Shown here: positions 40,617 through 50,228 of the stretch, in pieces
Layout: every line of letters begins with the position of its first letter
Position numbering within the stretch: the stretch's first letter is position 1
Assembly (NCBI GenBank): GCA_963702005.1
Contig: OY969696.1
Span: forward strand, 2,784,001 to 2,848,000
Reading direction: 5' to 3'
DNA length: 64,000 nucleotides
DNA from: Candidatus Aminicenantes bacterium
GTDB lineage: Bacteria > Acidobacteriota > Aminicenantia > Aminicenantales > JAFGBC01
Notes under the pieces: model-generated
Databases searched by the model: none
What the model was told of the DNA's origin: nothing
Seen by the model: only the letters and a program-made list of their open reading frames with translations
Program-made: the position numbers and the translations under genes

Positions 40617-41897
40617 ATGAAAGAGTACACACTCCTCGAGCTCGAAGAAAAAGAACTGACCCAGCTGACCAAGGTCGCCGCGGGGCTCGGCCTGAGCGAG
40701 GAAGATATCAAAGAGGCGTCCAAGCACAACCTTACTTTCAAAATTCTCGAGGCCCAAGCCAAAAAGCAGGGCTTGCTTTTTTCCGAAGGCGTCTTGGAAT
40801 GCCTCGAGGACGGGTTCGGTTTCCTGCGGGCGCCCGAGTTCAGCTATCTGCCCAGTCAGGATGACATCTATGTCTCGCCCTCCCAGATCCGCAAGTTCCA
40901 GCTGCGGACCGGCGACACGATCTCGGGCCACGTCCGGCCCCCCAAGAACGGCGAGAAGTACTTCGCCTTGATCAAGATCGAGGCCATCAATTTCCTCCAT
41001 CCCGACGCCGTCATCGAGCAGCGGCGCAACGTCCAGTTCGAGCAGCTGACGCCGCTTTACCCGCACGAAAAGATCAAGCTCCAGGACGGGAATCCCAAGA
41101 ACCTGAACGCCCGGATCATGGAGCTCCTGACGCCGATCGGCAAGGGGCAGCGCGGCCTGATCGTCTCGCCGCCCCGGGCCGGCAAGACGACCCTCCTCAA
41201 AACGATCGCCAAGTCGATCGAGAAAAACCACCCCGAAATCTACCTGATCGTGCTCCTGGTCGCCGAGCGGCCCGAGGAAGTCACGGACTTCAAGCGGAGC
41301 GTCAACGGGGAGGTCGTCGCCTCAACCTTCGACGAGCCCCCGGTCCGGAACGTCCAGGTCGCCAACATCGTCCTCGAAAAGGCCAAGAGGCTGGTCGAGC
41401 TTAAGCGCGACGTGACCATCCTCCTCGACAGCATCACCCGCCTGGCCCGCGCCCACAACTCGGTCATCCCGCCCTCGGGCAAGGTCCTGTCGGGCGGCAT
41501 CGACGCCAACGCCCTCAACAAGCCCAAGAAATTTTTCGGCTCGGCCCGCAAGGTCGAGGAGGGCGGCAGCCTGACCATCATGGCGACGGCCCTGGTCGAC
41601 ACCGGGAGCCGGATGGATGAGGTCATTTTTGAAGAGTTCAAGGGCACCGGCAATATGGAGATCAACCTCGACCGGCGCCTGGTCGACAAGCGACTCTTCC
41701 CGGCCATCGACATCACCCGGTCGGGAACCCGCAAGGAAGAGCTCCTGATCGAGGAGGTCGACCTGAACCGGATCTGGATCCTCCGCAAGGTTCTGGCTTC
41801 GCTCGGCGAGGTCGAGGCCATGGAGCTCCTTCAGGAGAAAATAGGCAAGACCAAGACCAACACCGATTTCCTTAACGCCATGAGCAAGGGGCTTTGA
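40617..41897 (+). CDS. rho: Transcription termination factor Rho
   Basis: [40 protein letters not shown]. Confidence 0.98.
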
Positions 41898-41915
41898 GGA
41901 GGGGAGGGGCTCCGG

Positions 41916-42860
41916 TCAGGAAGAATCCCTCGGGCCCGCCCTCCGCACAAAAAGGGACAGTTTCGCGGAGAGCATCTCCAAACACTCGGAAAGGCCGAAA
42001 AACTGGATCAAGCCCAGGCGGGAAAGCTTCAAGCGGAGCGGCCGGGGAAGCGTCCGGGGCGTCAATCCTTTTCGGAGGGACTCGGTCTCCTCATCCTCAA
42101 AAAAGATTTTCTCCTCCACGGCCAATCCCCGGAATCCGGCGTTTTCCGGGCAGGCGTCCTGGCATCGCAGGCACCCGATCAGACAATCGATCCAATCGGA
42201 ATTTAGCCAGGCGGGGAATTCCTGGGGCCCGCTGTAGCCGCTGTAGAAGGTCAGGCAGCGATCCTGGCGGAGCGGGAAGCGGTCCTTGCTGATGGCGCCG
42301 CTGGGGCACGCTTTCAGACAAGCCGTACAGCGCCGACAGCGCTCCATGAGGACGGGATCCCGCCAGATTTCATCCTCAGCCAAAGGCCTGTCCGAATAAT
42401 AGCTGACAAGCATGTGATGGCTTCCCAGGTCCGGGAGGTAGCAGATGTTGTTGCGTCCGTAGAAGCCTAGGCCGCTGCGTACGGCCAGGAGCTTCTGCGG
42501 GACGCGGGCGAAGACGGCCCGCTGCCCGGACGCCTTAAGGATGGCGTTCAGTTCCGATTCGACCTTCTTGGTCGTTTCCCAGTATCGGATATAGGAAGGC
42601 GGCACCCTCAAACGAAGAACCCGGCCGTTCCAGCGAAAGACGATGACCGATGGAGAATGCGGAACGGCGGCGATCACGAGGGACCGAGGCTTGAGTTTTT
42701 TTGGAGGGCAAGGACATCCTAATATGCGGGCGTAAGAACGAAAAATGAGGTCGGAAAGCCCATCCTGGCTGTGGAGGGATGCGACCTCATCTTTCAAGTC
42801 TTTACGGCGATCGGCGCGAACCATTCGATGTCGATATCCGAAACCTTTGACCTGATCCAC
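41916..42860 (-). CDS. QueG/reductive-dehalogenase-like double 4Fe-4S cluster protein
   Basis: KLLAVRSGLGFYGRNN, CRRCTACLKACP, GCLRCQDACP. Confidence 0.75.
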   Translation of the reverse strand: MDQVKGFGYRHRMVRADRRKDLKDEVASLHSQDGLSDLIFRSYARILGCPCPPKKLKPRSLVIAAVPHSPSVIVFRWNGRVLRLRVPPSYIRYWETTKKVESELNAILKASGQRAVFARVPQKLLAVRSGLGFYGRNNICYLPDLGSHHMLVSYYSDRPLAEDEIWRDPVLMERCRRCTACLKACPSGAISKDRFPLRQDRCLTFYSGYSGPQEFPAWLNSDWIDCLIGCLRCQDACPENAGFRGLAVEEKIFFEDEETESLRKGLTPRTLPRPLRLKLSRLGLIQFFGLSECLEMLSAKLSLFVRRAGPRDSS

Positions 42861-43006
42861 GGCGCTGTACCCTTATTTTTTAATGGTTCCCGTAAATCAT
42901 AAGGGAATTTTCCACAGCTGACAAGATCTTAGGCATGGGTATATTCACAAGGAGTGAAAATCGCTATCTGATTTAGAAATAAGGCTTTGGCGAAAGCAGT
43001 AAAATA

Positions 43007-43034
43007 ACGTCGCATAAGGATTATTATGTAAACT
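43007..43034 (+). other. dif: dif-like XerC/XerD recombination site
   Basis: ACGTCGCATAA-GGATTA-TTATGTAAACT has the 11-6-11 layout and resembles E. coli GGTGCGCATAA-TGTATA-TTATGTTAAAT; it lies in an AT-rich intergenic region. Confidence 0.85.
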
Positions 43035-43102
43035 ATTCAATTTTTTACCAAGACACCTTAAATAATTAATTCAATTTGAATAAGTGCGTTAGAAAACCAG
43101 TG

Positions 43103-43939
43103 TCAGCTCTCCGCCTTGAGCTTATGAATGATCTCTTCCAGCACATTGATGATTTCCTGGACCGTCGCGTTCTGCTTCTTGAATTCCAGCCTCAACCTGA
43201 AATCATCAGAATCCCCTGGAATATAATTATAGACGAAATGCTTGACCCCCGGCGACTTCCCTTTGATCTTCTTGGACAGCTCTCTCGTATCTTCCCGGGT
43301 TAATCCTCGCCTTGATATCTCGTAAATGAGCCTCTCCATGTCCGCTTCGGTCTTCAGCTTGGCAATCTCTAATATCGTGCTTCGGCTCGTGATCTTGTGG
43401 CTCTTCAGCATTTCCCTGATCTTCGGCGGAATCCGGCTTATCGAGATGATCTCCGTTATCGTCGATCGGGCTTTGCCCAGTTTCTCCGAGATTTGATTGT
43501 GATTATAGCTGTAAAGCTCAATGAGCGCCTTGAGTCCATCGGCCTCCTCGAACACGTCCAGATCCTTTCTCTGAAGGTTTTCGATGAGGGAGATTTCCAT
43601 GGCCTCGTTGTCTTTTACGTCCATTTCGATACAGGGAATCTCTTTCAGCCCGACCCGCTTGGAGGCGATGAACCGCCTTTCCCCAGCGACGATCTGATAC
43701 CGCATCCCGACCGGCCTCACGATGATCGGCTCGAGGATCCCCTTGGACTGGATCGAATTCATAAGCTCCTGGATGTTTCCCAGCTCGCTCCTCGCTTGTT
43801 GGGGGTTGGGGTCGATCCTCTCGATGTCGATCATCCGGATTCTCGGCCCGGCGCCGCGGGCCGCGATTAAATCGACAAAATGGGGGTCATGTCTCATATC
43901 GAGAGTTTCCGGCAAACCAGATCTTTTAGTTTTTTGCAC
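43103..43939 (-). CDS. parB: ParB/Spo0J-family partition protein
   Basis: NPQQAR, GILEPIIVR, AGERR CTP-binding motif, ENLQRKDL, HTH. Confidence 0.92.
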   Translation of the reverse strand: MQKTKRSGLPETLDMRHDPHFVDLIAARGAGPRIRMIDIERIDPNPQQARSELGNIQELMNSIQSKGILEPIIVRPVGMRYQIVAGERRFIASKRVGLKEIPCIEMDVKDNEAMEISLIENLQRKDLDVFEEADGLKALIELYSYNHNQISEKLGKARSTITEIISISRIPPKIREMLKSHKITSRSTILEIAKLKTEADMERLIYEISRRGLTREDTRELSKKIKGKSPGVKHFVYNYIPGDSDDFRLRLEFKKQNATVQEIINVLEEIIHKLKAES

Positions 43940-44690
43940 GTTTGATCAACTCCTCGGCGATTTTCCGGTACTGCTGGGCCCCTATTGAATTCGGAGCATA
44001 TGTGAATATGGATTCTTTATAGGCGGGAGATTCTTCAAGCTTGACGCTTTTGGAAATGGCCACTTTAAAAACCTTGTCGCCAAAGACCTTCTTGATCCTC
44101 TCTACGACATCCTTGGAAATATTCGTCCTCTGGTCGTGAAGCGTGATGACGACTCCCAAGATTTGAAGGTTCGGGTTGGCCACCTTTTTGACTTTTTCGA
44201 TTGTCTCTAAAAGGTCGTCCGTCCCCTCCAAGCATAAATACGAGGATTGAATCGGGATCAATACATGAGAGGCCGCGACCAACGCGTTCAATGTGATGAG
44301 CCCCAACGTGGGCGGCGTGTCGATGAAGATGAAATCGTATTTATTCCTGATCGGCTGGACGGCTTCTTTCAGCCGAAAGTGTCCGTCGATTTCTCCGATC
44401 AAAGTCGGTTCGAGTTTCGCCATCGATATTTTGGAGTTGGCAATATTCAACCCCGGCACCGTGGACTGATGTATAACGCTCTCAATCCTGTCATTGCGAT
44501 CCATCAAAACATCGTAGAGAGATTTTTTCAAATCCTGAGTATCACGAAGCAACGAAATCGTGCTGTGAGCTTGCGGGTCGGTATCGATCAGCAGAACTCT
44601 CTTGCCCATGAACGCCATGGCCGCGGATATATTCAGCGCTGTGGTTGTCTTTCCGACTCCGCCCTTCTGATTCGTGATCGCGATAATCAA
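43926..44690 (-). CDS. parA: ParA/Soj-family ATPase
   Basis: NQKGGVGKTT deviant Walker A, DTDPQAH, DTPPTLG; TTG start after GGAGG. Confidence 0.93.
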   Translation of the reverse strand: MIIAITNQKGGVGKTTTALNISAAMAFMGKRVLLIDTDPQAHSTISLLRDTQDLKKSLYDVLMDRNDRIESVIHQSTVPGLNIANSKISMAKLEPTLIGEIDGHFRLKEAVQPIRNKYDFIFIDTPPTLGLITLNALVAASHVLIPIQSSYLCLEGTDDLLETIEKVKKVANPNLQILGVVITLHDQRTNISKDVVERIKKVFGDKVFKVAISKSVKLEESPAYKESIFTYAPNSIGAQQYRKIAEELIKRAKN

Positions 44691-44719
44691 TGATGCCTCC
44701 CAAGGTTCTAAACACAGCT

Positions 44720-44748
44720 AAGATATAAAAAAAGCGGCTTCTTTTCAA
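44720..44748 (-). promoter_or_regulatory. Promoter of parA-parB
   Basis: Minus strand TTGAAA-N17-TATCTT about 30 bp upstream of the parA start. Confidence 0.55.
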
Positions 44749-44765
44749 CCCCCTTCGCGAGATTC

Positions 44766-44958
44766 CAAGGACGCTAGTCCCCAGCGGGGATATCGAATTA
44801 CCGCTTCGGGGACATACAGCGGCCTTGCAGTACTCATGGAGCCGTATCAACGGCTCCATGGGTGCAGCGGTTTCGCAGTGCACATGAACCAGAAACTGAT
44901 CATGTGCGCGCTCCAACGCCTCCAAAGAGTAGATCCCACAGACGTAAGTCCGTTGAGC
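44766..44958. ncRNA. Candidate structured RNA/DNA element (four consecutive stem-loops), family unknown
   Basis: Stems at 44766-44827, 44830-44865, 44878-44909 and 44910-44958 fill the region with almost no gaps; no credible CDS. Confidence 0.45.
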
Positions 44959-44987
44959 TTCCGCCCCATCGTATATCGAGCTTGAAA

Positions 44988-45003
44988 TGTCGGCATGCCG
45001 ACA
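44988..45003. promoter_or_regulatory. Perfect 16-bp palindrome TGTCGGCATGCCGACA (candidate parS-like or operator site)
   Basis: Exact palindrome with the same length and TGT...ACA ends as canonical parS TGTTTCACGTGAAACA; about 300 bp upstream of parA. Confidence 0.45.
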
Positions 45004-45393
45004 ATTCCCCTCTATCTGATCAAGTTTAGGATCATACTAAGCTATGAATTTTAAAGCTGCATACCTAAAAAGTATTTTAATTACTTTATTATCAATATCA
45101 TAGAATTGCATATTGATATTTCTACTGCCCAGCGATAATCTTCCGCCAAATCAATCGCCGCGCAACGTTCTGTTTGAAACCCAAGAACTCCGGCCCCATT
45201 GCCCCGGATGCGAAAGGTTTGGAATCTGGCCCGGATTGTCTCTCGTCGCTATATTATCATATCTCGATATCTTAATATAATAGCATTAACCCGAATGCCC
45301 GCGCCCCATTTTCTCCTCAGGAACGCTCACGGCTTTGATAAATTTATCCGTTTTCGTTATGATAATGCGCGTCGTGGAAAGGCGACGAGAAAA

Positions 45394-46272
45394 ATGACCG
45401 ACATTCTGAGTCTGGCCCGCGAGCGAACCGTCCTCCTCGACGGAGGCTTGGGCACGGAGCTTTTTCGCCGCGGATTTCCCCAAGGGGCCTGCCCCGAAGC
45501 CTGGAACGTCGAACATCCGGACATCGTCCAAAAAATTCACAGCGACTACTTCGGAGCCGGCTCGGACGCCGTCCTCACCAACAGCCTGGGCGGAAGCTCA
45601 ATAAAGCTCGCGACCTTCGGGCTTTCGTCCCGGGCCCTAGAGATCAACCGGAAAGCCGCTGAGCTGGCTGCTTCCGTCAGGCCTCAAGGACGCTTCGTGG
45701 GCGGCAGCATGGGACCCGTCGGGAAATTCCTCAAGCCGCAGGGAGATCTCGTCGAGGCGGACCTCGAGGCATCCTACGCCGAGCAGGCCCGAGGCCTGCA
45801 CGACGGCGGGGCCGATTTTCTTCTCCTCGAAACTCACTACGACCTCAGGGAAGCGCTGTCCGCACTCAAGGCGGCCCGGCGAAGCACCCCCATTCCCGTT
45901 TTCGTGACGATGACATTTGACCGCAAGCCGCGCGGTTTCTTCACGCTGATGGGCGATAAGCCCTCCGCCTGTTTCGCCGCTCTCGAAGCCGCCGGGGCTT
46001 CCGGACTGGGAGCCAACTGTACCCTGGACAGCAAGGATATGGCCGACCTCACCGCCGTTCTGAGACCCCTGACCGCCCTGCCCCTGATAGTCCAGGCCAA
46101 CGCCGGCCGGCCCTCCCTATCGGCGGAGGGCGTCGTCGCCTATTCTCAAGGCGTCTCGGACTATGTCCGTTATGTGCCAGACATGATCCGGAACGGCGCC
46201 AATATCATCGGAGGCTGCTGCGGCACGAATCCCGACTATATTCGCGCCATGGCCAAGATCCTCCAACCTTAA
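45394..46272 (+). CDS. Homocysteine S-methyltransferase domain protein (stand-alone MetH N-terminal module)
   Basis: LLDGGLGT, GANC and GGCCGT zinc-ligand motifs; ATG at 45394. Confidence 0.9.
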   Translation: MTDILSLARERTVLLDGGLGTELFRRGFPQGACPEAWNVEHPDIVQKIHSDYFGAGSDAVLTNSLGGSSIKLATFGLSSRALEINRKAAELAASVRPQGRFVGGSMGPVGKFLKPQGDLVEADLEASYAEQARGLHDGGADFLLLETHYDLREALSALKAARRSTPIPVFVTMTFDRKPRGFFTLMGDKPSACFAALEAAGASGLGANCTLDSKDMADLTAVLRPLTALPLIVQANAGRPSLSAEGVVAYSQGVSDYVRYVPDMIRNGANIIGGCCGTNPDYIRAMAKILQP

Positions 46273-46281
46273 TCCAGGTTG

Positions 46282-48066
46282 ATGGCCTTCAAGATTCAAG
46301 TCCTGTCTCCCCTACCCCGGACGATCGAAGCCGAGGCCGGCCAGAGCCTGTCCCGAGCCCTGATCGAGGGCGGTATTCCGCTGAACGCTTACTGCGGCGG
46401 AAAAGGCCTCTGCGGAAAGTGCCTGGTCGAGGTCGTAGCGGGAACGCTTCCTCCCCCTCTACCCGAAGAAGCCTCCCTGTTGAGGCGAAAAAGCCCTGAT
46501 TCCCCCTTCCGGTTCGCCTGCCTGCTTCCCGTCCGTAGCGACCTCGTCGTGAAGATTCCCACGATCGCCCTGATATCGCCCCTCCAAGGGCTGACCGAAG
46601 GGATTCTTGCTTCGCTCGACTTTGACCCGGCGGTCAAGCTGTTCCCTTTCAGGCTAGGACGGGATCAGTTGTCCCCTTCCCTCCTCGAATCGCGCGGGGC
46701 CGAGCTATTTAAGCTCCCCTTCAACGATGCCTGGCGTTCGTATTCCTGGCCCGTTCTCCGGGAGGCGATCCGGTCCGCCGGCAACGCGCCCGGGGATTAC
46801 ACGGCCGCGATTTACGAGGAGCGGATCCTTCTCGATGTCGCGCCCGGGGAGAACGCCGATACGGCCTTCGGCCTGGCCGCGGACCTGGGGACCACGACCG
46901 TTGTCATGGAGCTCGTCGACCTCGTCGCCGGCCGCATCTTGGGGAAGGCCATCGGGCTTAACGCTCAGGCCCGTTTCGGGGCCGACGTCATATCCCGGAT
47001 CTCCCATGCTATTCTGGCCCCCGCTCAAGCCGAAGAATTGAGAGAGGCCGCGCTCGAAACGCTGTCGGACCTCCTGTTCCGGGTGGCCGCCGGCGCGAAC
47101 ATTCCTCCCCAGGCCATTTTCGACATCGTCGTCGCGGGCAATACGGCCATGAACCATCTTTTGCTGGGCCGGTCCGTCCGGTCGTTATCCGCCGCCCCTT
47201 TCGAAGCCGAATTCCGAACGCTGCCGCCCCTCGAGGCCGTCGCCTGCGGCTTCCCGGTCCAGCGCCGCGCGAAGCTTTTCATCTCCCCGAATATCGGAAG
47301 CTACGTCGGGGGCGATATCACGGCGGGGCTGCTGGCCACCGGGATGCTCGGCGAGCCGGGAAACCATTTGTTCATCGACCTGGGCACAAACGGCGAGATC
47401 GTCCTCAAGGCCGGCGATACGGTTACGGCCGCCTCGACGGCCGCCGGGCCAGCCTTTGAGGGCGCGAGCCTCAGCTGCGGCATGCTGGCCGTTCCCGGCG
47501 CCGTGGATAGGGCCGTCGGTCCGGACGGGGCCCCGCTCCTATCCACGATCGGAGACAGGACCGCGGCCGGCATCTGCGGGACGGGCTATGTCGACCTGCT
47601 GGCCAGGTTCCTGCGCGAGAGGCTTGTCTCCCGGAGCGGAGCCATCGCGGGCGGAAAAGCCTTCCTCCCCGTCGCCGAGGGGATCTCGGTCAGCCAGAAT
47701 GATATCCGCCAGCTCCAGCTGGCCGTGGCCGCCGTCAGGACGGGCGTCGAACTTCTGCTGAGGCGAAACGGGCTCGCTCCCTCCGACCTGGACGGCCTCT
47801 ATCTGGCCGGAGCCTTCGGCAACTACCTCAACGTCGAAAGCGGCCGGACGATTGGCCTTCTGCCGAAGATCGACCTCGGAAAGGTTCGCTTCGTAGGGAA
47901 CACCTCCCTGGCCGGGGCCAGGGCCATGCTCCTTTCCCGGCGCGCCCGTGCCGAGGCCGTTCGGATCGCGGGGTCGATCGCCCACGTGCCGCTTGCCTCG
48001 GACGCCTCGTTCCAGGATACTTACATCCGGTCCCTGATTTTTCCGGGGACGGGAGATGCCGAGTGA
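46282..48066 (+). CDS. Corrinoid reductive activator (RACo/RamA-like, 2Fe-2S + ASKHA, DUF4445)
   Basis: CGGKGLCGKC ferredoxin, DLGTTT, GADVISRI, DLGTNGE, AGPAFEG, AGAFG. Confidence 0.9.
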   Translation: MAFKIQVLSPLPRTIEAEAGQSLSRALIEGGIPLNAYCGGKGLCGKCLVEVVAGTLPPPLPEEASLLRRKSPDSPFRFACLLPVRSDLVVKIPTIALISPLQGLTEGILASLDFDPAVKLFPFRLGRDQLSPSLLESRGAELFKLPFNDAWRSYSWPVLREAIRSAGNAPGDYTAAIYEERILLDVAPGENADTAFGLAADLGTTTVVMELVDLVAGRILGKAIGLNAQARFGADVISRISHAILAPAQAEELREAALETLSDLLFRVAAGANIPPQAIFDIVVAGNTAMNHLLLGRSVRSLSAAPFEAEFRTLPPLEAVACGFPVQRRAKLFISPNIGSYVGGDITAGLLATGMLGEPGNHLFIDLGTNGEIVLKAGDTVTAASTAAGPAFEGASLSCGMLAVPGAVDRAVGPDGAPLLSTIGDRTAAGICGTGYVDLLARFLRERLVSRSGAIAGGKAFLPVAEGISVSQNDIRQLQLAVAAVRTGVELLLRRNGLAPSDLDGLYLAGAFGNYLNVESGRTIGLLPKIDLGKVRFVGNTSLAGARAMLLSRRARAEAVRIAGSIAHVPLASDASFQDTYIRSLIFPGTGDAE

Positions 48067-48088
48067 ATTCGAGAAGAAGGGAGACACG

Positions 48089-48745
48089 ATGAGCGCCAAG
48101 GACGATCTCTTAGTTGGCATGAAAACGTCCGTCGTCGAGGGCAACCGGGCCGACTCCGAACGGCTGGCTCAGGAAGGCCTCCGCTCCGGCCTGGACCCGC
48201 TCGAGGCCATCGAGAAAGGCTATGCGGTCGGCATCCAGGAGGTGGGCGTTCTCTGGGAAAGGGGCGACTACTTTCTGCCCGAACTCGTGGCCAGCGCCGA
48301 GTGCATGAAGGCGGCCATGGCCGTCCTCGAGCCCACCCTGTCCGCCTCGTCCCGCGAGGCCAGCCGGCTGGGCAAAGCCGTCATCGGGACGATCGAGGGC
48401 GATATCCACGACATAGGGAAAAATCTGGTCGCGGCCATGCTCCAAGCCCACGGGTTCGAGGTCCTCGACCTGGGGGCCGACGTCAAGCTCGAACGGTTCG
48501 TCGAAAAGGCCGAAGCCGAGTCGGCCCGCCTCATCTGCGTTTCGGCCCTGCTGACGACGACCATGGCCAACCAGAAGAAGCTTATCGAGCTCCTGGGCGA
48601 GCGAAAAGTCCGTTCGAAGTACAAAGTCCTGGTGGGCGGCGCTCCCGTCAACCAGGCCTGGGCCGATGCGATCGGCGCCGACGGCTACGGCGAGAACGCC
48701 CTGGCGGCGGTCCGGGCGGCCAAGAAACTCCTGGCCCAAGGCTGA
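48089..48745 (+). CDS. Corrinoid (B12-binding) methyl-carrier protein, MttC/MtbC-like
   Basis: GDIHDIGKNLV (DxHxxG), SALLTTT, VGGAP. Confidence 0.93.
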   Translation: MSAKDDLLVGMKTSVVEGNRADSERLAQEGLRSGLDPLEAIEKGYAVGIQEVGVLWERGDYFLPELVASAECMKAAMAVLEPTLSASSREASRLGKAVIGTIEGDIHDIGKNLVAAMLQAHGFEVLDLGADVKLERFVEKAEAESARLICVSALLTTTMANQKKLIELLGERKVRSKYKVLVGGAPVNQAWADAIGADGYGENALAAVRAAKKLLAQG

Positions 48746-48761
48746 AGAATAGGAGCCGGCC

Positions 48762-50228
48762 ATGATGATCCCCGCCCTCCGTCCCAAGCTCGAAGTCCTG
48801 AGGCCTGAGCTCATCAAGTCCATCATCGACGAGGCCCTGGCCCTGCTCGACAAGCAAGGCATCTTCGTCGAAAACGAAAATGCCTTGGCCCTTTTCCGCG
48901 ACGCCGGCCAGCGCGTTGACGGCGCCGCCCAGAGGGTTCGCCTGTCGGAAAAACTCGTCCGGGACGCGTTGGCCAGCACGCCGTCCGAAATCCGGCTTTA
49001 CGACCGGAGCGGAGATAAAGAATTCCTGGTCGGCCGGGACGAAGTCCATTTCGATCCGGGTTCGACCGCCATCACCATCCTCGACCCCGCGACCGGCCTT
49101 CACCGGAAGCCGGTCACTCCCGACCTCGTCCGCCTGGCCCGGCTGACCGACCTTCTGCCCCATTACCACTTCCAGAGCACGGCCCTTATCGCCGGCGACG
49201 TCCCGGACCTCGTTGCCGACAGCTACCGGCTCTTCTTGGCCCTCCAATACTCGGCCAAACCCGTCGTCACCGGGACGTTTCGGGTCGAGGGCTTCAAACC
49301 CATGCTGGAGATGCTGATGGCCGTCCGGGACAGCGCTCCGGCCTTGGCCGCCAAGCCCCTGGCCATCTTCGACGCCTGCCCCTCCCCTCCCCTCAAATGG
49401 AGCCAGCTGACATCCCAGAGCCTTATCGACGCGGCTCGGGCCGGGCTGCCTTCGGAGCTCATCTCGATGGGCATGACCGGAGCAACCTCGCCCGCGACCA
49501 TCACCGGAACGCTTGTCCAGCACACCGCCGAGAACCTCTGCGGCCTCGTCATCTGCCAGCTGGCCCGGAAGGGGGCCCCGGTCATCTTCGGCGGGTCACC
49601 CTCGAGCTTCGACATGAGGAAGGGAACGACGCCGATGGGGGCCATCGAAACCATGATGATCGACATGGCCTACGCCCAAATCGGAAAAACGCTGGGACTT
49701 CCGACCCATGCCTATATGGGATTGACCGACGCCAAGGTCATCGACGCCCAAGCCGGTCTGGAAGCCGCTCTCGGCGCCGTTCTAGCCGCCCTGGCCGGCA
49801 TCAATGTCGTCTCCGGACCGGGCATGATGAACTTCGAAAGCACCCAGAGCCTGGAAAAACTCGCCGTCGACAACGAGGTCTGCGGGATGGCCTACCGCCT
49901 CGTCGCCGGCATCGCCCAGAGGGACGATCCGATGGCCCTTCCCTTCTTTGAGGCCCTAAGCGCGTCCACCCAGTTCTTGTCTCTCCCCCATACCAGGCAG
50001 TGGTACCGGAAGGAGCACACCCTGCCCGGTCTCATCGACCGGGACACTTACGAAGATTGGGTAGCGTCGGGCCGGAAGACGATGGCCGACCGGGCGGCCG
50101 AGGACGTCCCGAAACGGCTTAAGGAAACGCCCCTAAACCTGGCCGATAAGAACGTCCGAAAGGAGCTCGAACGGATCATGCTCGGCGAGGCCCGAGTGGC
50201 CGGACTGAGCCGGCTGCCCGAGGTCTGA
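48762..50228 (+). CDS. MttB-superfamily methyltransferase, non-pyrrolysine
   Basis: SPPL, GATSPATITGTLVQHTAENL, FDMRKG, GLTDAKVIDAQAG; no in-frame TAG. Confidence 0.88.
   Translation: MMIPALRPKLEVLRPELIKSIIDEALALLDKQGIFVENENALALFRDAGQRVDGAAQRVRLSEKLVRDALASTPSEIRLYDRSGDKEFLVGRDEVHFDPGSTAITILDPATGLHRKPVTPDLVRLARLTDLLPHYHFQSTALIAGDVPDLVADSYRLFLALQYSAKPVVTGTFRVEGFKPMLEMLMAVRDSAPALAAKPLAIFDACPSPPLKWSQLTSQSLIDAARAGLPSELISMGMTGATSPATITGTLVQHTAENLCGLVICQLARKGAPVIFGGSPSSFDMRKGTTPMGAIETMMIDMAYAQIGKTLGLPTHAYMGLTDAKVIDAQAGLEAALGAVLAALAGINVVSGPGMMNFESTQSLEKLAVDNEVCGMAYRLVAGIAQRDDPMALPFFEALSASTQFLSLPHTRQWYRKEHTLPGLIDRDTYEDWVASGRKTMADRAAEDVPKRLKETPLNLADKNVRKELERIMLGEARVAGLSRLPEV

Follow-up and report, generated by a model that had tools for sequence, protein, structure and literature searches.

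A ParAB gene pair beside dif in Acidobacteriota suggests active positioning of the chromosome end by a putative second ParABS system

Introduction

Only for bacteria that have MatP is there a good understanding of how the replication terminus is placed and its sister copies are separated; in most phyla, this is ascribed to passive processes and to FtsK pumping. A locus in the closed genome of a Candidatus Aminicenantes bacterium (G000; 4,309,361 bp) raises the question of what a partition-type gene pair does at the end of a chromosome. The stretch of DNA that was analyzed, called the window here, comprises 64,000 nucleotides (G000:C1:2,784,001-2,848,000) and contains a ParA and a ParB gene, hereafter parA2 and parB2 (together parAB2), beside a 28-bp sequence that resembles dif, the site at which XerC/XerD resolve chromosome dimers. 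An earlier note on this DNA proposed that the pair was a second ParAB dedicated to the terminus, with cis elements of its own, or, alternatively, the relic of a plasmid or of an integrative mobile element exploiting Xer recombination (IMEX).

The answer reached here, to which we give a probability of roughly 0.6, is that parA2, parB2, and a nearby palindrome, parS2, form a complete second ParABS system, which is orthogonal to the ParABS of the origin and dedicated to the replication terminus. The presence of a terminus ParABS beside dif suggests, as far as can be judged from sequence, that the chromosome end is actively positioned.

Replication Origin and Terminus of the Chromosome

The origin of replication, oriC, is located near 0.50 Mb, as indicated by GC skew, dnaA, a canonical gidA–parA–parB–parS locus, and the strand flip of words that resemble the FtsK orienting polar sequences (KOPS). 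The detrended cumulative GC skew of the whole chromosome reaches its minimum at 502 kb, beside dnaA (503,572-504,903), and its maximum at 2.758 Mb; the inversion that the earlier note wished to see checked near 43 kb of the window is thus the maximum and not the minimum. Two of the genes that the note had not noticed in the window are indeed elsewhere, gidA being found at 553-555 kb and dnaA at the position just given. When octamers with a strand skew were sought de novo, G-rich, KOPS-like words emerged. The strand of GGGGAGG changes at 502,397 and again at 2,825,900, the second change being 1.1 kb from the dif-like site (2,827,007), and that of GGGNAGGG changes at 2,815,787, 11 kb from this site. 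Within the window, the cumulative GC skew has a turning point at about 14 kb. The strand bias of long open reading frames (ORFs) is weak genome-wide (54% co-oriented), yet it turns in the origin and terminus regions, which is in line with the converging gene orientations described previously; as the ORFs were called crudely, this bias is only weakly informative.

The dif-like 28-mer, which the note had spotted 68 bp past the parB2 stop, has the 11-6-11 layout of XerCD-type sites and is unique in the genome: every other 28-mer differs from it at six or more of the 22 arm positions, so that the chromosome offers no better candidate. Two loci, at 321 and 399 kb, encode XerC/XerD-class recombinases that score above the XerD cut-off, and the genome has one gene for an FtsK that includes the gamma domain (FtsK_gamma, 98.5 bits, at 835.7 kb). 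The sequence features expected of a XerCD/dif system are thus found, namely the 28-bp layout, a single copy, a location where the skews converge, and XerC/XerD together with the FtsK gamma domain. The skew maximum, the KOPS-like flip, the uniqueness of the 28-mer, and the presence of XerC/D and FtsK-gamma therefore identify this site as the dif of the chromosome, which places parAB2 directly on the terminus.

This location is shared by relatives. Relative to chromosome length, on a scale that cannot exceed 0.5, the distance between dnaA and parB2 ranges from 0.43 to 0.50 in all nine closed chromosomes: 0.46 in G000, 0.43 in G003, 0.48 in G017, 0.46 in G023, 0.47 in G113, about 0.475 in G133 (size rounded), 0.47 in G150, 0.50 in G292, and 0.49 in contig 1 of G042.

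The Origin-Linked ParABS

The chromosome also carries a separate, canonical gidA–parA1–parB1 locus at 553.6-555.2 kb, which bears out the proposal that parAB2 is a second pair. Canonical parS sites have a consensus of the TGTTNCACGTGAAACA type. The sole site of this type in the genome, TGTTCCACGTGGAACA, is located at 553,612-553,627 (L001 645-660), within the 27 bp that separate gidA from parA1. No canonical site was found within three mismatches in or near the parAB2 locus; the note, too, had seen none there, and the only one in the genome is far away. The gene that follows parB1 looks like a bactofilin gene from its translation. In G000, G042, G133, G150, and G292, the distance of parB1 from dnaA is 10-50 kb. 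ParB1 is present in 280 of 301 genomes of the phylum (E ≤ 1e-40). The tallies over these 301 genomes include three unpublished ones (G064, G192, and G089), on which the conclusions do not depend. ParA2 and ParA1 share 40% identity, and the match between ParB2 and ParB1 is limited to residues 37-156 (43%).

A third, distant ParB-like gene (43.4 bits) was noticed in L003 (G000 3,133,042-3,136,338), beside a RadC-like fragment in AT-rich DNA, and five 9-mers that resemble DnaA boxes are clustered 14 kb from it (3,148,358-3,148,962). The mobile-looking context of this region is possibly that of an integrated plasmid-like element.

The parA2 and parB2 Genes and Their Products

The reading frames of parA2 and parB2 share 14 bp. 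In ParA2, the deviant Walker A motif KGGVGKTT (residues 9-16) is invariant in 15/15 aligned orthologues, as are the Walker motifs in general among the aligned sequences. ParB2 has the motifs of CTP binding and hydrolysis, PNPxQ(P/A)R, GERR, and ENLQR(K/R)DL (ENLQRKDL in G000), which are invariant or nearly so; the residues G86, E87, R88, R89, E120, N121, R124, and D126 do not vary in the alignment. An AlphaFold2 (AF2) model of ParB2 (mean predicted local distance difference test score, pLDDT, 79.7) predicts that residues 1-31 are disordered and that the remainder is a standard ParB, with a dimerization-like β-β-α domain at the C-terminus. The closest solved relatives are chromosomal Spo0J/ParB proteins (1vz0, 7bnk, and 6t1f) and Noc.

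Two regions distinguish ParB2. The recognition helix of the helix-turn-helix (HTH) domain, R158-I167 (RSTITEIISI), is largely unlike that of ParB1, differing at most positions; in place of the N of ParB1 it has an invariant E163, and the arginine of the 'LRLL' position is absent. The N-terminus carries a family-specific motif, GLPxxxxMRHDxHFV, of which G8-L9-P10 and R16-H17-D18-x-H20-x-V22 are invariant in 15 orthologues from several classes; ParB1 has an LGKGL-type peptide at the corresponding place. The GERR motif, the unusual N-terminus (G-LP-x4-MRHD-x-HFV), and the divergent helix, all three pointed out in the earlier note, are thus real and are signatures of the family. A predicted complex of the ParA2 dimer, ATP, and ParB2 residues 1-45 (score 0.09, mark 0.32) counts neither way as to binding. 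Taken as a candidate chromosomal (type Ia) ParABS, the locus has the ParA Walker A motif, the ParB domains with their CTP motifs, and a palindrome of its own; it has neither a canonical parS sequence nor a location near the origin.

In four genomes of family f46, parB2 contains a single in-frame TAA or TAG (G097:C5:136807-137604, G124:C294, G148:C95, and G206:C9), which could reflect a pseudogene, a sequencing artefact, or recoding.

A Candidate Centromere

Scanning the loci for palindromes that they have in common revealed a site with the shared form GTCGGCnnGCCGAC, here named parS2. The note had predicted that the second pair would have its own cis elements, and parS2, although overlooked at the time, is a candidate for one. 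In the window, it stands upstream of parA2, about 298 bp from the start of that gene, and its distance from dif is 1.95 kb. It is unique in G000, where the next best site differs by two mismatches. The palindrome shares the outer TGT...ACA with canonical parS and differs in its core, and the altered recognition helix of ParB2 fits this change.

Of 53 parAB2 loci, 49 contain the pattern TGTCGGCnnGCCGACA with at most one mismatch over 12 core positions, and one of the four loci that lack it is a truncated contig. Its placement varies: in the order it is found upstream of parA2, at a spacing of 65-222 bp in the relatives, whereas the other classes have it within parB2, around codon 175, or a short way downstream. 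Among the 301 genomes of the phylum, 127 have both parS2 and ParB2, 47 have only ParB2, three have only parS2, and 124 have neither, so that parS2 and ParB2 tend to occur together; as the genomes are related and therefore not independent, the Fisher P value of this association is too extreme. A reversed-pattern control matches eight of the 301.

Genome-wide scans with the exact pattern, in closed or near-closed genomes, found parS2 only around parB2. Exactly one site, at the parAB2 locus, was found in G003, G017, G023, G133, G292, G042, and G084, and the scan of G113 returned none. Two larger genomes have arrays around the terminus: G150 has five sites within 130 kb (875,554-1,005,002), which flank dif (928,245) and parB2, and G200 has four within 53 kb (1,260,076-1,313,240), around parB2 at 1,299,253. 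The reversed-pattern control had 0 matches in all ten genomes scanned.

In G000, the long spacing between parS2 and parA2 is due to insertion of a dispersed repeat between them (Table 1). At least ten partial or full copies of this element, with 70-93% identity, occur elsewhere in the genome, and it is not part of the parAB2 system. About 85 bp beyond parS2, there is also an AT-rich inverted repeat, TATCAATAT-N11-ATATTGATA (45085-45118). An AT-rich word, TTATTATCA, found beside dif in relatives and upstream of parA2, was considered as a locus-specific element and rejected, since the whole genome contains 33 copies; a promoter-type element of the lineage is one possibility.

Linkage of parAB2 to dif

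The earlier note had called for a test of dif linkage among homologues, and within the order the linkage holds in every locus compared directly. In the 30 order-level loci measured (L006-L035, the window's own included), dif (≤3 arm mismatches) is located between -6 and 256 bp from the parB2 stop, and the same dif arm always faces parB2; dif is beside parB2 in 32/32 loci once L036 and L037 are included. Similarly, in the five closed genomes tested (G003, G017, G023, G113, and G150), the dif pattern is unique and adjacent to parB2. Across the 16 loci for which 18 kb of context were available, the arrangement lon - rho -> [variable] dif <- parB2 <- parA2 is conserved.

Outside the order, dif was linked in 11 of 21 loci with 1.5-kb flanks. 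When flanks of 10 kb were considered for 16 loci, four more had dif within 0.3 kb, and three had it at 1.7-6.5 kb (two with weak scores). A survey of 67 named records, in which dif was scored within 1.5 kb downstream of parB2, found 27 linked loci: 6/7 in Aminicenantes, 6/6 in Vicinamibacteria, 1/1 in Polarisedimenticolia, 6/11 in Thermoanaerobaculia, 7/20 in unclassified Acidobacteriota, 1/1 for one unclassified bacterium, 0/12 in Blastocatellia, and 0/9 in Terriglobia (Acidiferrales/Acidoferrum), the last two classes having no dif even within 3 kb. Because the scoring matrix had been built from the earliest sites recovered, a divergent dif may escape it. In a previous study, dif was predicted with a Firmicutes profile in 3/3 Acidobacteria, and the word ParB does not occur in the portion of that paper that was available (Kono et al., 2011; PMC3025954).

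Distribution and Inheritance

ParB2 orthologues of full length, with 59-87% identity, are present in 38 of 40 relatives sampled from the order, the carriers representing 9 families and 23 genera; the two negative genomes are only 83% and 69% complete. In 30/30 order-level loci (L006-L035), parA2 is directly upstream of parB2 and overlaps it (71-89% identity for ParA2), and in other classes ParA2 retains 52-65% identity. Across the phylum, ParB2 was detected in 174 of the 301 genomes (E ≤ 1e-45); outside the order its identity is 38-51%, with the N-terminus covered by the match. According to the names of related public records, the family belongs to Acidobacteriota, where it occurs in the classes Aminicenantes, Polarisedimenticolia, Blastocatellia, Terriglobia (Acidiferrales), Vicinamibacteria, and Thermoanaerobaculia, and matches from other phyla, among the best 80 of at least 600 stretches, cover only the common ParB core (34-39%). 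To judge from these comparisons, parA2–parB2 is a second ParAB pair that has been inherited vertically.

Comparison with Known Systems

The systems closest to parAB2 are the chromosomal ParABS of Bacillus and Thermus (Soj/Spo0J-parS) and of Caulobacter and Myxococcus (ParAB-parS). These have in common with it a Soj-type ParA with a deviant Walker A motif, a ParB with the CTPase fold (GERR and ENLQR), an HTH and a C-terminal domain, and a 16-bp palindrome near the genes with the outer TGT...ACA. Unlike them, parAB2 is at the terminus beside dif and coexists with an origin system, the central 10 bp of its palindrome are CGGCnnGCCG, and ParB2 has the altered helix (E163, no 'LRLL' arginine) and the MRHD motif.

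In enterobacteria and Vibrio, matS sites mark the Ter macrodomain; MatP, which is not a ParB, has many sites and is not known to have an ATPase partner. The likeness lies in the confinement of sites to the terminus around dif, as in the arrays of G150 and G200. However, the fold of ParB2 is unrelated to that of MatP, ParB2 has a ParA partner, and there is usually one site. The ParB paralogue Noc has an altered DNA specificity and occurs alongside a canonical ParB; it matches ParB2 at 6e-28 (7ng0, 7nfu, and 7ol9). Noc is not known to have a dedicated ParA, its many sites avoid the terminus, and its N-terminus targets the membrane, whereas ParB2 is paired with a ParA of its own and its candidate sites are confined to the terminus; ParB2 is thus not a protein of the Noc type. 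A second orthogonal pair with its own parS variant is also found in multipartite genomes, as in the ParAB2-parS2 of chromosome 2 of Vibrio cholerae (PMC3141006, in the part available). In such genomes the second ParABS serves the origin of a separate replicon, whereas here both systems are on one chromosome, at opposite replication poles. An abstract-level literature search found no description of a terminus-located ParABS or of a parAB-dif unit and, to our knowledge, no dedicated ParA-driven system of the terminus was previously known.

Other Features of the Locus

Table 1. Positions of the features of the parAB2 locus in the window.
Feature	Position	Strand	Description
DnaA-box-like module	42908..42960		TTTTCCACA (42908-42916) and degenerate palindrome TTCAC-N5-GTGAA (42944-42958), beyond dif
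dif	43007..43034	+	28 bp, XerCD-type 11-6-11; TTATGTAAACT arm faces parB2
parB2	43103..43939	-	278-aa ParB; Pfam ParB_N 3.5e-26, HTH_ParB 1.9e-16
parA2	43926..44690	-	254-aa ParA/Soj-type ATPase; Pfam AAA_31 3e-57, CbiA 4.3e-26
GC-rich dispersed repeat	44722..44967		Resembles miniature inverted-repeat transposable elements (MITE) or repetitive extragenic palindromes (REP); ~245 bp, between parS2 and parA2, internal 19-nt inverted repeat
parS2	44988..45003		16-bp perfect palindrome TGTCGGCATGCCGACA; candidate ParB2 centromere

Beyond dif, the locus contains a module that resembles DnaA boxes. The 200-bp regions distal to dif in 32 order-level loci (L006-L037) contain 25 9-mers with at most one mismatch from TTTTCCACA; the background, in the rest of the loci and in shuffled sequences, is 0.06 per 200 bp, which corresponds to an approximately 12-fold enrichment. 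In many of these loci, such words recur at constant distances from dif (54, 66, and 100 bp on its far side), and boxes of the same type occur three times directly upstream of dnaA in G000 (504,917-504,948). Similar words are present near dif in some other classes, sporadically. In several of the 16 relatives examined, the module is located between the convergent genes rho and parB2, and it is therefore no obvious promoter.

The Fer4 gene at 41916-42860 was considered as the owner of the module and rejected: it has no match in the wider loci of 16 relatives and is therefore not a conserved neighbor, and in several of these loci it is rho and parB2 that converge on the module. An Rfam scan of positions 41500-46500 gave no match at E up to 1, so no known RNA accounts for the non-coding flanks. 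On the other side of parAB2, directly upstream, is a corrinoid methyltransferase cluster (45199-50228) that encodes a homocysteine S-methyltransferase domain (215.5 bits) and RamA-like, B12-binding, and MttB-like proteins; this cluster is syntenic in several relatives.

Proposed Mechanism and Alternative Explanations

The gene pair, its motifs, its location at the terminus, the palindrome, the linkage to dif, and the conservation are observed. Building on them, it can be proposed that clamps of CTP-bound ParB2 would load at parS2 and spread over the few neighboring kilobases, dif included. ATP-bound ParA2 on the nucleoid would then position the ParB2–parS2 complex, keeping a lone complex at mid-nucleoid and moving two sister complexes apart. 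In this way, the terminus and dif would come to lie at the plane of division, within reach of FtsK and XerCD, and replicated sister termini would be separated actively.

Several results weigh against a dedicated terminus ParABS. The GC-skew maximum is 69 kb away from dif, and the gene-strand bias is weak. The system is missing from 127 of the 301 genomes of the phylum and must therefore be dispensable in some lineages. Its linkage to dif depends on the lineage and is not universal in the phylum: nine of the 16 loci with wide flanks have no dif-like site within 10 kb, and the orientation of dif is reversed in three of the 27 linked named loci. Of the 174 genomes with ParB2, 47 have no exact parS2, some of them having one-mismatch variants, and, as most genomes have a single parS2, an array that would define a 'Ter domain' is exceptional. 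In addition, DNA binding, spreading, positioning by ParA2, and a benefit to dimer resolution or division are steps that we infer from homology.

The arrays of G150 and G200, confined to about 50-130 kb around the terminus, recall the marking by matS and could point to an organizer of the terminus domain, in which ParB2–parS2 structures or insulates this region as MatP/matS does, or recruits or unloads condensin, and ParA2 merely tunes ParB2 without any transport. The loading of SMC by canonical ParB at parS has been counted in favor of this explanation (PMC4536313, in the part available). Nevertheless, one parS2 in most genomes is too few for a domain-wide role, and the conservation of ParA2 (71-89% in the order), with its constant place in a likely transcription unit with parB2 and its invariant ATPase motifs, argues for a working ParA partner, so that we regard such an organizer as unlikely. 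A slightly less probable alternative is coupling to the division site or the cell cycle, where terminus-bound ParB2/ParA2 would mark mid-cell or license the divisome, in the manner of MipZ-ParB, PomXYZ, or MatP-ZapB, instead of segregating DNA as such. In G000, the best MinD match is below the NCBIfam cut-off (68.7 bits vs. 212.9), and tblastn with ParA2 returns only ParA1 and ParA2; the organism may thus lack a Min system, which keeps this explanation alive, and the N-terminal motif of ParB2, which is invariant, family-specific, and predicted to be disordered, could contact some protein besides ParA. However, the absence of Min relates to one model and one genome, the locus has no linked division gene, ParB2 retains all features of a DNA-clamp ParB, and ParA2 retains those of a Soj-type ParA.

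The low GC content of the locus bears on its origin. As the earlier note had seen, the pair is AT-rich, with a GC content of 0.489-0.496 at 43-45 kb compared with about 0.61 for the window, and it abuts dif. Elements of the IMEX type use dif as their integration site, and an island of this kind in Neisseria carries parA/parB homologues, which is reminiscent of the partition-type genes found here directly beside dif. An ancestor of the phylum might thus have acquired the partition cassette of a plasmid or IMEX through Xer recombination at dif, the cassette being preserved with little or no chromosomal role. Yet G000 has no second dif-like site with fewer than six arm mismatches, no direct repeats were found flanking the locus, and no replication, integrase, or transfer genes are adjacent to it; between the conserved flanks there are only parA and parB. 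The two bounding dif-like sites, the sporadic distribution, and the mobile gene content of IMEX elements are therefore all lacking. The GC content and third-position GC content (GC3) of parAB2 are slightly below those of rho and lon in 16/16 relatives and track the host (37-58% GC), and the GC3 of ParAB1 is likewise below that of rho and lon; on such comparisons, the lower GC of parAB2 is a conserved trait and no mark of recent transfer. A search of PLSDB with ParB2 found no plasmid protein above 36% identity among 2,767 matching records. The presence of the pair in nearly all relatives from the order and in more than half of the genomes from the phylum, with conserved synteny, and the additional parS2 sites across the terminus region of G150 and G200 also oppose a relic. 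The alternative offered by the note, a recent dif-integrated plasmid or IMEX, is thus not supported, given the single dif, the vertical inheritance, and the distance of the plasmid relatives, and a domesticated relic with little or no chromosomal role seems very improbable, although the pair may have been captured at dif in the distant past. No more credit can be given to a sensor of replication completion, in which passage of the fork through the terminus would be coupled to the control of initiation or to Xer recombination via the DnaA-box-like module and cross-talk between ParA and DnaA. ParA/Soj regulates DnaA in Bacillus, and the enrichment of the 9-mers, their fixed offsets, and their identity in type with the boxes upstream of dnaA are consistent with such a role. 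However, at least one box is present in only 16 of 32 order-level loci, and at least two in 8 of 32, the module being missing or degenerate in about half of them; it is sporadic in other classes, and the motif could serve another protein.

Implications

If a dedicated terminus ParABS is indeed encoded by this locus, it would be the first known dedicated ParA-driven system of the terminus, and it would mean that ParB specificity can be re-coded into two independent addresses on one chromosome. With a 16-bp site and two small proteins, it would offer a testable handle on the coordination of termination, dimer resolution, and division, and cultured members exist in Vicinamibacteria, Thermoanaerobaculia, and Blastocatellia. 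Orthogonal labeling of DNA is a further possible use of the parS2/ParB2 pair. A wider hypothesis, which we consider doubtful, holds that many Acidobacteriota have two orthogonal centromeres per chromosome, of which the terminus one carries dif to the division plane and, with the DnaA-box-like module, reports the completion of replication to the machineries of division and initiation. If true, these bacteria would possess a system for active terminus segregation with a checkpoint that has no known counterpart.

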